Source: Felis catus (Eukaryota). Taken from it: DNA of 64,000 nucleotides. The notes below the pieces were generated by a model, which saw nothing but the letters and a program-made list of their open reading frames with translations, was not told where the DNA came from and ran no database searches. Within the stretch, counting starts at the first letter, position 1. Every line of letters begins with the position of its first letter. The DNA lies in NCBI RefSeq assembly GCF_018350175.1, contig NC_058368.1, forward strand, positions 81,780,001 through 81,844,000, read 5' to 3'. Of this stretch, positions 28,401-34,400 are shown one piece after another. The position numbers were made by a program, and so were the translations under genes.

Positions 28401-31400
28401 AGTCCAGATAGAAGCACCTCTTCGGAGACGCGATTTCTTCTTGGAACCAAGTCTGTTAGGTGCAGGCCTCGATTTTGTGCCCGTAGCACCTTCCTCTATT
28501 TGCTGCATTACTGTCTCTGGTCCCTCTATCCTTCCAGGCCGCTGGGGTCAGAGAACCTGCTTCTCAGAGGAGCGACGCTTAAGAACACTGAGAAGATCTT
28601 CGGTCAGTGTCTCGGTTGGCTAATTAGTACTAACAGCTTATAAAGTTAAGGTGCACAGAGCAGTTAAAGTCCACAGTGCTGCCACGAACAAGCTCTCCGT
28701 GCCCTGAGTGGACTCTGGCACCAGTGAAAACCGTGCTGAGGATGACGAAGCAGTGAGGTCTCAGGGTGTCACTTGCGTATCAAGTGCCTGTAGTTTTTGA
28801 CTTAGAAACATAGAGTCATGTCCACGAGAGAATTCACAGTCTGTTTCCACAGCAGATTTCTCTCAACGCCTGCATATCTTTGGTAACGTCTCCCATTTCT
28901 GTGGGTTATGTTTGTTTTTTAATTGAGACAACTTAAAAATACACACATGTGCCCCGTTGTCAGAAAACCCAATATCTTAAAACCTGAGCTTCAAGAAAAA
29001 ATAGAGATTGATCTCTACGTGGGAAAAAAAACCAAACATTTCTTTTTTTTTTTTTTTAATTTTTTTAATGTTTATTCATTTTTGACAGAGAGACAGACTG
29101 TGAGCAGGGAAGGGGCAGAGAGAGAGGGAGACACAGAATCCGAAGCAGGCTCCAGGCTCTGAGCTGTCAGCACAGAGCCCGATGCGGGACTCAAACTCAC
29201 AAACCGCCGAGATCATGACCTGAGCCGAAGTCAGACACCTAACCAACTGAACCACCCAGGCGCCCCTAAAAAAAAAACATTTCTTTAGTCTGAAGAATCC
29301 TGTTGTGGAACTCTTTTTATGAACAGCTAGCTTGCCTAGTGAAATTTAGAATACAACTTTTGTCCAAACTTCTGTATTTACTGCAGCTGTGTGCAGCTTC
29401 CTGCGTGAAGGCAAGGTTCGCCTGTGTTATTGTTCTAACTGCTGTCTTCTGCCTTGCAGGTGTTGCTATCTACACGGGCATGGAAACCAAGATGGCATTA
29501 AATTACCAATCAAAATCCCAGAAGCGATCTGCTGTAGAAAAGTAAGTGTCAGTACCCCTTTGTTTGAAGTGCGTACAGCTCCATGACCTGGAACCATCAT
29601 GAGCCCCTGTAGACATGAAAGCATTTTCCTTCTGGCTTCATTAGTAATTCCTTCATGGTCTCTAGGGAGACAGCAGCACCGGGCATTTAGACAGATGGTC
29701 TCATTCTGTGGGGCAGCAAATGGCTGCATGCGTTCAGCCTGTGTCTGCAGGCTCCCTCCTGTGGACACCTAGAGTCCCAGCAGCTCCTCTCACCAATCCA
29801 TGGAAACGTCAAAATCGGGTCACTTTCAGCTTTGGGGTTGTTGGAAACCGTGTGTTTTTCTGAGGGAAACATAAGCAGAGAGAACAATCTTCCTTTCGTT
29901 AAACAGTAAAATCCTTACCGTGATGAGTCAAGGACAGAGTTGAATTTGTGAGAAAATGTGGCCCAGAGTGTTGTCTTACTTTCCTTTTGTTCAAGTGCAT
30001 CCTTGACTTGCGGTGGTTACAAGTTATTCCACACGGCGGGACGGGGGGGTGGGGGGGGTGGACTTGGGGATCTTTGGGAAGACTGTCAGGTGTCTGCTGC
30101 CTGCCTCGGGCACGTTGGTCTCAGAATGTGATCCGGCCATCTCCGTCCATCGACGGCCACACCGAATATGAAAATGGAGATTTGGCTCTTAATAAGCAAG
30201 AATGCTCTGTTTCCAGGTGTTACCTTGATGAATAGGTTTCAGAAATAAATACTGGAAACTCAAGCCTTCTTCACAAGATCCACTGAGCCATTGGCCAGGG
30301 ATTCAGCCTTTTTCCTATTCGGAGGGCATTTCTCTCCTGCCCCAGTGGTACTGGGGAACTCACTGGTTGGAGCTTAGTGGCCGAAGGGTGGACATCTGGG
30401 TGTCTCTGAATCTTGGACTCCCGGACCACACAGTCAGCAGTGTGGCTGCATGAACTGCCCTCTCCTGTTCTTGAGACTTTCCCTGTGGCCCCAGAATCAC
30501 ACGCCAATGCAAGCTTCTGTTCTCATGGTGACCGTGCCAGGTGATGGGGCGGGGGGGGGGGGGTGCTCACACGTTGCTCTGTTTCCTGGCCACACATTTG
30601 GCTTGAGGTCCATCAACTGTCTACACAAAAGCACTATCAACTGTCATATAAATAAAGTTTAAAAAACCAACTCTGCTGTCATGTTTCATGAGTTACAGGA
30701 TGCATCTGTGAGAATGAACTAAAATGGAAAAGTTTTCATCGGAACCATCCTGATAACTCGCCCGCCCCAGATGCCTGGGAACACAGCACGGAGGGCAAGC
30801 AGGTCCCTCGGGAGCAGTGACTAAGTATCATTGCTGTCTTGTGTTGTAGATCCATGAATGTGTTCCTCATTGTGTACCTCTGCATTCTGGTCAGTAAAGC
30901 ACTGATAAACACCGTCCTCAAGTACGTGTGGCAGAGCGAACCGTTCCGAGATGAGCCGTGGTATAATCACAAAACCGAATCGGAAAGACAGAGGAACCTG
31001 GTATGGAAAGTGCGTCCCTTTGCGGTGACCAGACCGCCTGTAAGCCATCGTTATGGCAACATGGCAGGAGAACAGGAGGCCTCGGTTGGTGACATCTCTG
31101 TCCTGGAGGCATTCATTGATCTCAGGGTGTATCAGTGGTCTCTCCCTGCAGACCGTACTCACCCCTGAGCGTCAGTGGTCTCCCCCTGTGGACCGTGCTC
31201 GCCCCTGTCTTGGTTGGGTACTGGAATGTATACTCTGGAAAGGGATTGGCCCCCACAGTGAATTCATTAGGGCAGCACCGTAAACATTTCCAGAGCTTCT
31301 AGAACCCAGCACAGTGTCCTGTACTTAGAGGCTGTTCAGCAAATGCTCAGTGAGGATCATGAGGAGAGACTAAAGAAAGGAGGAACATGTCAGTTATAGG

Positions 31401-34400
31401 AAAATTATGGTAAGAACTGATTGCATTTCCCCTTGGGGTTCAGGCTCAGTTGCTCATGTCTATGAAAACTGGTTTTCCCTAAGCCAGGAGTTAAAATCAT
31501 TTGACTGAACCTTTTCCACTTAAAAGAGTACTGTTTTCTTCCCTGAGTTAACACCTGAGCTATGTGCCTCCAGAACAGGTAGCACTGGGTGCAGAGTGGG
31601 GCCACGTGCGGGTCCAGAGCAGAGTCCTGCCTCACCTGTGTTCAGTCGGATCTCCCACAGAACTAAATGGCTTAGAGATCAGAACAAAACTGTGCAGAGA
31701 AGTCCTTTCTCCCAGCCTTATTTCTGGGGCTGGGTTATTACCAAGTAAGTTTGGAAACGTGTCAGAGTCTGGAAGCAAGTGTGGAACCCTCAAAACGTGC
31801 AGTTTCCCGCCAGCTCTTAGGAGGCAGGCGCCTGTCTCCCCCAGTGTGACTATCTCACAGGTGACCTGCCCCTTGCCCCCGCCACCAGTATAGGCCTTCT
31901 CCCTGTCTGTGGCCCTCATGGTGCTAAAGTCAGGTGACTGGCCACTAAGCTGTGCCTGCCCCCAAATAATGTGTATCTTTGGATTTGAAATAAACACCTG
32001 TATTTACAGATAACACTGGTGCGACCTGAAGGGAACGCTAAGTGTCAGATCTTCGTGGTGTTGGTGATGGGACACGGGAATCACGCGGGGCTCTCTCAGT
32101 TCCTCAGGGCGTTCACGGACTTCCTGGCGTTCATGGTTCTCTTCAACTACATCATCCCGGTGTCCATGTACGTCACGGTGGAAATGCAGAAGTTCCTGGG
32201 CTCGTACTTCATCACCTGGGATGAAGACATGTTTGATGAGGACACAGGCGAAGGGCCTCTGGTCAACACCTCAGACCTGAACGAAGAATTAGGACAGGTC
32301 AGTGTGTGCGGCGGCCTCTTCCCCAACTTGTAGATGATCGTGCCCTCCGTGCTGTGTTCCCAGGCGTCTGGGGTGGGCGTGTTATCAGGACGGTTCCGAT
32401 GAAAACTTTTCCATTTTAGTTCATCCTCACAGATGCATTCTGTAACTCATGAAACATGGCAGCAGAGTTGGTTTTTTAAACTTTATTTATATGACAGTTG
32501 ATAGTGCTTTTGTGTAGACACTTGATGGGAAATTAGCTGTATTAGCTGTTTGATAAAAGCTCACCGTGCGGCTGCAGTGCTGCTCGTTCTGGCTTTTCAT
32601 GCCATGTAGGCAGGGAGACAGGCAGCGCAGTCCGCTTTTCTGGGTGATTCCCTTTCCTCAGTCTGAAGATGAGCAAAGAGACACCTCCGAGTGTCCGTGG
32701 CTGGGTGGATTGCAGGGGTCAGACACCTCATTGCACACTGTTGGCCCGAGCTCTCTGTATCTGAGCTGCTTCGTCTGTGAAATGGGCCTGATACCTGCCC
32801 TGCCCAAGTGCAGGGCGGGCTGAATGGGGTGTTGGCCGGTGTGCATTGCAGCTCAGGGCCGCCCAGAAGAGGGGCAGAGCCCGTGCACGCCCATCCACCG
32901 GCCCCACAGCTCAGCTCCATCGCTGTGCCCCAGCCTGACCCTCTCCTGGCTCTTACGTCTTGGGAAAGGGCATTTGGTAAATGGTGGTTCGTTCATCTTT
33001 GAAAAGAAAAAGGAAAAAAACAGGAAGAAACTTGGAAGATTTTTGCAAAGAGGGCCGTTTTAGACTGGCAGCTGAAATCCACCCCCTACAGAACAGCAGT
33101 CTGTAGTAGACGCACAGACTCAGGTGGGGGCCTGCAGCGCTCCCCGCTTGGGTCAAGGGGGTCTGTTCCCGAGAGAGAACTTGCTGGTTGGTGAGCATGG
33201 CTCTCAGGGCATCGCTCCAGTGTGTGCTGCGGCCCCGGGCTGGACTCCGGTGTCACACAGCCACGCGGAGCCCCGGCCCGCTCACTCAGCACCAGACCAG
33301 CTTTCCCTCTGCATGTTCACACCCTCGGTAACATTACCTGGTGTATTTTGTGTGTTGCTGAGAAATTCTCAGAGGAAAGCATTTCTCTGTAACAAGAAAA
33401 ATGTCGAGTTTACTACGGAGAACGTATCTGGCTCCAGCTGTCGGACAGCACAGGGGCCCCGGAGGTTTGTGGGAAAGCTTTAGGAGATGGGGCCTCCTGA
33501 AATAGTCATTATCATCGTTGGTCCTCACTCTGAAAAATGTCAGATGTCGCTTACTTCCAGTAACACAGCCGCCCGTGCCCGTGAGCCCTCACAAGCGGGC
33601 GCCTTCCTGTCACTAGTTTTCCAGATTGTGGGGAGAGGCCTGGCAGAGTTTTGGGTGTTTGGATGGCAGGTGGTTTAAAAATAATTCAGGGGGGTACTGC
33701 TGTGTACTTACAGTTTACTTGAGTCAAGCACACAGAGGAAGGCATTTTCTGCGGTGGGATTAAGACACAAGAGAACATTTTGCTGAAAAAGGCACAGCAT
33801 GAAACATGTAGCCGGTTCATTACCTGTCTCCTCTGCTTCCCGGGCTCCTGCACTTTACTGCCCTTAAACCTGCCTCCCTTGTGTGTCCCGGGCAGTGAAC
33901 GGGGACTTGCTCCTCCAGCCAGCGGGGCTTGGACGGCGGGGATCCCCACGCTGTTCCACTGTCCAGAATGCTACGTCATTCCTGATGAACATGTACCCGA
34001 AATTGATCCAAGTTTAGGGCTTAAAACGGTGTAGTTTTGTGTCTGAAATTTTCTCTGTGCTTTTGTTTGAGTTCTGACTGGTGAACTGTCAGTGGTGTGG
34101 TGAGTTTTGACCTCCCAGACCTCAGAGTGAGCTCAGGTTCATTCTCCCTGCATCCTTCATTTTCTCATACCCCCACCCCACATCTGTGCATCCAAACAAT
34201 GGGAGCCGAGCTGCACCCAGAGCTTCCACCTCCAGACCCAGAGGAAGGTGCTCACGCGGCTCCGATGGGACTGCTGGCCTTGGCGGGAGCTAGAGGAGGC
34301 TGGCTCGCCAGGCGCAGGGTCCAGCGGCTCCGGCAGGGTGGGGGGTGGAGCCCGCGAAGCCCCCTCCAGGTGGAAGCGGGGCTGCACCGGGGTCTGACCC

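Follow-up and report, generated by a model that had tools for sequence, protein, structure and literature searches.

A probable lineage-specific inverted micro-duplication bracketing exons 11 and 12 of felid ATP11A, and the circular RNA that it predicts

In a 64-kb stretch of the cat genome (Felis catus, contig NC_058368.1, positions 81,780,001 to 81,844,000; hereafter the window), exons 11 and 12 of the ATP11A gene are bracketed by an inverted repeat with one 188-nt arm in intron 10 and the other in intron 12. A sequence-only reading of the same DNA had described this repeat, and we confirmed that observation as correct in every checkable detail; the direction of copying is new in this analysis. 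We give a probability of roughly 0.6 to the reading that the repeat is a lineage-specific local inverted micro-duplication in felid ATP11A, and that its pairing in RNA favors a circle of exons 11 and 12 as a tolerated by-product, not as an evolved switch. The arms and the spacers that separate them from the two exons are as follows.

30610..30797, plus strand: left arm, in intron 10; putative derived inverted copy (repeat search, genome search and empty-site alignment of the read-through sequence P0123).
30798..30849, plus strand: 52-nt spacer; probable ancestral 3' end of intron 10, containing the branch-like motif GACTAAG, a pyrimidine tract and the acceptor AG.
32298..32340, plus strand: 43-nt spacer, carrying the GT donor of intron 12.
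32341..32528, plus strand: right arm; probable ancestral intron-12 sequence that has stayed in place and served as source of the copy (read-through sequences).

The inverted repeat in introns 10 and 12

A repeat search of the window placed the arms at 30610-30797 and 32341-32528, 188 nt long, 96% complementary and with 1543 nt between them. Direct comparison of one arm with the other gave 180/188 matched positions, eight mismatches and no indels, which reproduced the coordinates and the identity claimed previously, and a recount of the eight differences as plus-strand RNA gave the same classes that had been listed (four G-U, two A-C, one U-U and one C-C). Similarity broke off sharply at all four arm ends. 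By BLAST within the window, the arms matched each other with an E value of 2.8e-85, and no further arm match longer than 22 nt was found. The arm pair was the longest and most alike of 13 inverted pairs of at least 60 nt in the window, the other 12 being 71-86% complementary, and the repeat search detected no second inverted pair of at least 30 nt within 29000-34500.

The right arm occupied positions +44 to +231 after exon 12. With the acceptor AG at 30848-30849 and the donor GT at 32298-32299, both spacers and the branch-like motif lay outside the duplex; the claimed distances of 52 nt to exon 11 and 43 nt from exon 12, which leave GACTAAG and the 3' splice site free, were correct.

Direction of the copy

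Evidence on the direction came from short open reading frames (ORFs) on genomic contigs of other species in which an ATP11A exon reads into the adjoining intron. The exon 12 set consisted of 10 short Logan-only rows, found among the 120 of 1226 matches listed. The post-exon part of each ORF was aligned to 32298-32700 with a frameshift-tolerant protein-against-DNA score, and 40 shuffles of each were scored in the same way. Six of the 10 ORFs were colinear from the donor at 32298 into the right arm, with scores above all 40 shuffles (z 4.1-18.7), and the remaining four did not score above their shuffles. The alignments reached 32396 (P0003), 32442 (P0004), 32487 (P0009), 32668 (P0015), 32487 (P0018) and 32485 (P0023), so that P0015 crossed the entire right arm and continued for 140 nt more. 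The tblastn view agreed, with read-through ORFs matching the right arm after exon 12. Because these six ORFs aligned from the exon 12 donor into the arm, the comparison indicated that the right arm belongs to orthologous intron-12 sequence and has kept its ancestral position.

For exon 11, 56 short ORFs were found, 28 of which read upstream into intron 10. No arm-like match upstream of exon 11 was obtained by tblastn in the 18 of these 28 ORFs that had longer upstream parts, although this is a weak test. A protein-against-DNA aligner that allowed one jump was then run on eight mammal-like exon 11 ORFs; the limit of one jump was chosen since the version with unlimited jumps overfitted, its shuffles scoring equally high. 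The 31 upstream residues of P0123 aligned to 30574-30609, the 36 nt abutting the left arm, and then jumped to approximately 30795-30850, with a score of 41 as compared with a mean of 28.8 (sd 2.4, maximum 35) for 40 shuffles. On a grid of 14,000 deletions, all 13 top scorers (45-47) removed 184-185 nt at the arm, whereas the alignment without any deletion scored 30. In one near-optimal solution, deletion of 30610-30794 left a junction microhomology of about 3 nt. Homology to the 52-nt spacer was seen in the upstream read-through parts of P0123 and other ORFs. Judging from its intron-11 read-through, which was 62% alike to the window in residues over 24 aa, P0123 comes from a different, moderately distant mammal.

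Because P0123 joins both flanks of the left arm without the intervening 184-185 nt or so, we conclude from these alignments that the insertion of the left arm, an inverted copy of the intron-12 sequence, is the derived state. The last 3 nt or so of the left arm may have been present before the insertion, since the insertion relative to P0123 measured about 184-185 nt. One copy was thus found in place and the other absent from an outgroup, as in a local inverted duplication. This supported the recent inverted duplication that had been suggested and added its direction, from intron 12 to intron 10.

Divergence of the arms

The two arms differed at 8/188 positions (p = 4.3%, 95% confidence interval 1.9-8.2%; Kimura two-parameter distance 0.044), by six transitions and two transversions, and three of the eight differences were CpG-related. 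The neutral rate of mammals is about 1-2.2e-9 per site per year. With such rates, the copies would have separated on the order of 10-20 million years (My) ago, with several-fold uncertainty. On a given strand half of the six transitions are expected to give G-U and half A-C; three wobbles were thus expected and four were seen. Because the wobble count was as chance predicts, the differences showed no sign of selection for pairing, and they look neutral. Two mismatched pairs, ending at 32366 and 32374, could be polarized with P0003 and P0009: these outgroup ORFs shared the state of the left arm, indicating that the source (right) arm changed after copying. Private changes were present in both arms.

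Occurrence of the arm sequence in the genome

When the 2.43-Gb genome was searched with the arm, exactly two candidates were returned, namely the two arms, whereas a control search by the same method with an arm resembling a short interspersed nuclear element (SINE) at 52195-52350 gave 1891 candidates. The method is therefore able to detect repeat families, and the contrast of 2 with 1891 placed the arms outside any dispersed family. The description of the arms as non-SINE sequences that have no other copy in the window was thus borne out, and could be extended to the whole genome.

The outer flanks and exon 12 were single copy in the genome, and the arm flanks showed no further shared local duplication. 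Searches for relatives were negative: the segment 29500-33500 had no Rfam match at E values up to 1, scanning metagenomes for a 33-nt pattern from the arm gave none, and no candidate came from a word-based search with an ORF that covers exon 11 in antisense, the adjoining spacer and the left arm. Neither processed copies of exon 12 nor copies derived from a circular RNA (circRNA) were found in the genome. An exact look-up of four junction-spanning or control ORFs in the protein collection found none of them present, the control included.

ATP11A exons at the repeat

A full-length felid ATP11A (P0012) was mapped onto the window to obtain the exon map, from which the following features are relevant here (TM, transmembrane segment).

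29460..29552, plus strand: exon 10, upstream partner for linear splicing or skipping, from the mapping of full-length felid ATP11A.
30850..31000, plus strand: exon 11, 151 nt, beginning with the last base of a codon; TM3 region.
31001..32099, plus strand: intron 11, 1099 nt; would be spliced out of the predicted circle.
32100..32297, plus strand: exon 12, 198 nt, starting and ending in phase 0; encodes TM4, including PVSM, and stops just short of the phosphorylation motif.
34476..34796, plus strand: exon 13, downstream partner; its 3' end is the limit of the tblastn match, the splice site being unchecked.

Introns 10, 11 and 12 measured 1297, 1099 and 2178 nt, respectively. Exon 12 matched solved ATP11C chains (E value 3e-30); the match covered the TM4 PVSM region and ended shortly ahead of the phosphorylation motif. 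In a large protein collection, among the 120 of 1226 matches listed, all six rows at 100% identity with exon 12 were felids, and most rows at 95-98% were named phospholipid-transporting ATPase IH / ATP11A. One felid entry identical over 32100-32297 was named ATPase IG (ATP11C), the others being IH (ATP11A), which looks like a naming inconsistency in the source. Both open stretches between the arms had a stop-free translation. They were the 10th and 11th coding exons in the window, and residues 1-8 of the protein lay upstream of it; the numbering 11 and 12 agrees with the exon map if these eight residues are encoded by a single exon. The protein matches and the exon map thus upheld the assignment of the bracketed exons to ATP11A exons 11 and 12, and their combined length (151 + 198 = 349 nt) agreed with the size that had been given for the circle.

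RNA folding and the predicted circle

Co-folding of the two arms gave -342.1 kcal/mol, as compared with -46 and -45 kcal/mol for the single arms, and in the minimum-energy fold of 30400-32800, 184 of 188 arm positions were paired in register. The predicted duplex contained perfect Watson-Crick runs of up to 61 bp and 103 A-U/U-A pairs; the antisense arm pair was similarly stable (-335.7 kcal/mol). These folds agreed with the claim that the RNA duplex would be nearly perfect.

The earlier proposal that this geometry promotes back-splicing matched the established intron-pairing model as PMC4201285 presents it. Reverse-complementary sequences were present in both introns flanking the exons (introns 10 and 12), and pairing across the exons was favored over other partners, given the absence of another genome copy and the in-register fold. 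The free spacers of 52 and 43 nt provided an accessible acceptor upstream and an accessible donor downstream. A long, nearly perfect intramolecular double-stranded RNA (dsRNA), as required of an ADAR substrate, was also present in the predicted structure. In minigenes, inverted repeats of 30-40 nt beside the splice sites are described as sufficient for circularization (Liang and Wilusz 2014, PMC4201285). A 349-nt circRNA of exons 11 and 12 is a reasonable prediction from the folding and the geometry, short of a certainty. An ORF starting at the first ATG of such a circle would stop after 130 codons.

As for circRNAs reported in other work, a pig muscle paper names ATP11A among the host genes of differentially expressed circRNAs (PMC10099641), and a study of cat intestine states that 3342 circRNAs were detected (PMC10367386). 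In the supplements of the latter, novel_circ_0009634 from small intestine is exactly 349 nt long and is listed without coordinates or a host gene. It is one among 402 circRNAs with predicted miRNA sites, so the match in length is likely due to chance and serves as a lead only.

Comparison with known systems

As in the inverted Alu/SINE pairs of the ZKSCAN1, HIPK3 and EPHB4 minigenes described in PMC4201285, the ATP11A arms are complementary sequences in both flanking introns, close to the acceptor and the donor, and their pairing would draw the splice sites together. Unlike those pairs, as far as that source describes them, the arms are a unique two-copy duplication and have no competing partners, and the circle is here a prediction only. 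They also exceed typical Alu pairs in length and, by a wide margin, in likeness (96% over 188 nt). A closer likeness in kind is offered by the inverted repeats of mouse Sry, which the same source, after Capel 1993 and Dubin 1995, describes as non-SINE, locus-specific inverted duplications bracketing the circularized exon; the Sry arms, however, exceed 15 kb and belong to a single-exon gene, whereas ATP11A is an essential multi-exon gene in which arms of 188 bp bracket two internal coding exons. The predicted intronic dsRNA also resembles the reverse complementary matches that are ADAR targets and modulate circRNA output according to PMC8938519, in that long dsRNA would form across circularizable exons; the ATP11A locus is known in this respect from structure alone.

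With regard to origin, the repeat may be compared with the products of microhomology-mediated break-induced replication (MMBIR), fork stalling and template switching (FoSTeS) and snap-back synthesis. Template switching of these kinds during replication or repair yields templated inverted insertions. The ATP11A arms share with MMBIR/FoSTeS insertions the inverted copying of a short nearby segment, sharp ends, the absence of a target-site duplication and a microhomology of a few nucleotides at most. Unlike the known cases, the mechanism at ATP11A is read from the end product, and at junctions about 10 My old the original microhomology is not confidently readable.

Proposed origin and consequences

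The sequence of events that we favor is as follows. Approximately 185-188 bp of ancestral intron-12 sequence was copied, inverted, to a site in intron 10 that lies 52 nt before exon 11. The presumed mechanism is a template switch during replication or repair; a target-site duplication was not visible, and the junction microhomology was at most about 3 nt. The two copies then drifted apart by 4.3% in a neutral-looking manner. In the pre-mRNA, following the intron-pairing model, the arms would form a 188-bp duplex that loops out exons 11 and 12, leaving the donor of exon 12 no more than about 100 nt away from the acceptor of exon 11. Back-splicing to the 349-nt circle would thereby be raised, the arms would become a target for ADAR and dsRNA helicases, and a fraction of the transcripts would be diverted from productive splicing. 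Any by-product in which exon 10 is joined to exon 13 would be out of frame. We read the circle as a tolerated side effect, the duplication itself being neutral or slightly deleterious.

Several points weigh against this reading. The empty site was recovered in only one of the eight mammal-like ORFs, the other seven not scoring above all 40 shuffles; the deletion boundaries in P0123 can slide by about 20 nt, so that the exact junction is ambiguous; and the protein-against-DNA scoring was purpose-made and uses best-case codons. The age of the duplication hangs on the mutation rates assumed. On the RNA side, the stability of a duplex does not predict the yield of circles, and stronger hairpins, G-U wobbles and runs of A can inhibit circularization, in the minigene results described in PMC4201285; the arms carry an A6 run as well as four wobbles. 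Fast co-transcriptional splicing of introns 10 and 12, which are short, or helicases could also pre-empt the pairing.

If the circle is made, the locus would provide a clean natural experiment, namely a young, dated, non-repetitive and partner-unique inverted repeat whose arms lie about 50 nt from both splice sites around two essential exons, with close relatives lacking the left arm as built-in controls. The cost of one strong intron pairing in the linear mRNA would then be directly measurable, free of the web of Alu/SINE partners. The mechanism itself is textbook knowledge. The inverted micro-duplication is real, unique and lineage-specific, and the locus would show that small template-switch duplications can create a circRNA-prone geometry de novo. 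The arms could, in addition, mediate a rare inversion of exons 11 and 12 in cats, which would be a null allele; mutations of human ATP11A cause deafness and neurological disease.

Alternative explanations

A neutral duplication that has no appreciable consequence for the RNA, in which arm pairing would be rare in vivo because the short introns are spliced co-transcriptionally or because bound proteins or helicases such as DHX9 prevent it, is unlikely but deserves the most serious consideration. The neutral mismatch pattern would suit it, as would the poor prediction of circularization from stability and the inhibition by wobbles and A-runs (PMC4201285), and the genome holds no processed or circRNA-derived copy of exon 12. 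The name 'circATP11A' was not found in a literature search, although 15 papers mentioned both ATP11A and circRNA, and ATP11A was absent from five supplements of PMC10367386, the circRNA feature table with coordinates being outside those five; both are weak negatives. Against it, 188 bp at 96% is far stronger than the 30-40 nt that suffice in the minigenes of PMC4201285, and the arms lie about 50 nt from both splice sites and have no competing partner anywhere in the genome.

The sequence-only reading had proposed a built-in switch giving the circle, skipping of the TM3-TM4 (PVSM) exons, or both. As an evolved cis-regulatory switch, in which regulated pairing of the arms would control ATP11A output by circularizing or skipping these exons, the proposal is quite improbable. 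It could draw on the near-symmetric, ideal placement of the arms (52 and 43 nt from the splice sites, with the branch site free), on the very stable duplex and on the listing of ATP11A among host genes of differentially expressed circRNAs in pig muscle (PMC10099641). Skipping, however, shifts the reading frame because 349 is not a multiple of 3, and the join of exon 10 to exon 13 meets a stop 49 codons into exon 13; the skipped product is thus a predicted target of nonsense-mediated decay (NMD), and an isoform lacking TM3-TM4 is not expected. The skipping part of the claim was not supported on this count, and the switch as a whole was disfavored by the mismatches, which showed no excess of pair-preserving changes and no sign of selection for pairing. 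Moreover, the left arm was absent from another mammal with an otherwise conserved ATP11A, and the gene therefore appears to work without it. A related possibility, that the felid-specific 188-bp copy was co-opted as a dosage valve for the ATP11A flippase, is very doubtful; here helicase- or ADAR-controlled pairing would set, in each cell type, the loss to the circle or to NMD-bound skipped mRNA, and selection or conversion would keep the arms alike.

It is similarly doubtful that the inverted repeat is older and that its arms were kept alike by gene conversion, so that 4.3% underestimates its age; the high identity had been thought to allow this as well as a recent duplication. Inverted repeats 1.5 kb apart can convert each other, and the perfect runs of 61 and 33 bp would suit patchy conversion. 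The left arm, however, was absent from the single informative outgroup ORF, no arm-like sequence was seen upstream of exon 11 in 18 of the 28 read-through ORFs (the weak test described above), and both arms carried private changes. Gene conversion does not appear to be needed to explain the likeness of the arms.

An assembly artefact, that is, a false inverted duplication from chimeric long reads, is hardly credible. Fold-back artefacts are known in long-read assemblies, but here the arms differed at eight positions, at two of which outgroup ORFs shared the left-arm state, and the exons between them were intact and in order. In addition, 14 DNA-type runs (seven studies, two organism labels) contained 0.96 of 230 31-mers sampled from 30400-32800. 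Absence of either arm would remove 184 of 2371 words, so that about 17.8 of the 230 sampled words should be missing, whereas 9-10 were observed to be missing (binomial P(<=9) = 0.014). The word content of the runs agreed, at the level of consistency only, with the presence of both arms in independent samples. Three metatranscriptome runs contained 0.61-0.77 of the sampled words and were not used as expression evidence. As a separate observation, a G-run of about 17 nt broken by one C lies in intron 10 at 30546-30563, 46 nt upstream of the left arm, and may explain part of the approximately 4% of sampled words absent from every DNA run.

Finally, transposable elements are the usual source of intronic inverted repeats and the other 12 inverted pairs of the window look SINE-like, but an origin of the arms from two insertions in opposite orientation, or as the terminal inverted repeats of one DNA transposon, has a negligible chance of being correct, given two copies only in the genome, a right arm that is orthologous intron sequence in other species, conserved host exons between the arms, no target-site duplication and no Rfam match.

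Other features of the window

The segment 52195-52350 forms inverted pairs, 83% complementary, with 55211-55366 and 55455-55610, and these pairs bracket ATP11A exons at 53083-54926. This segment, the sole arm of those pairs tested, belongs to a repeat family (the 1891 genome candidates given above), and the arrangement is a conventional repeat-driven geometry in which another circRNA is possible. Several overlapping inverted pairs of 74-86%, presumably SINE-like, were formed by 11774-11981 with 14834-15718 and lie within a single long intron, which separates the exons 10309-10452 and 17542-17643. In intron 11, two adjacent 36-nt direct repeat units, 86% alike and with a spacing of 40 nt, were located at 31132-31207. 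The region 34200-34800, which spans the end of intron 12 and exon 13, was GC-rich, with a GC content of 0.66-0.73 per 200-nt window as compared with 0.45-0.55 nearby.

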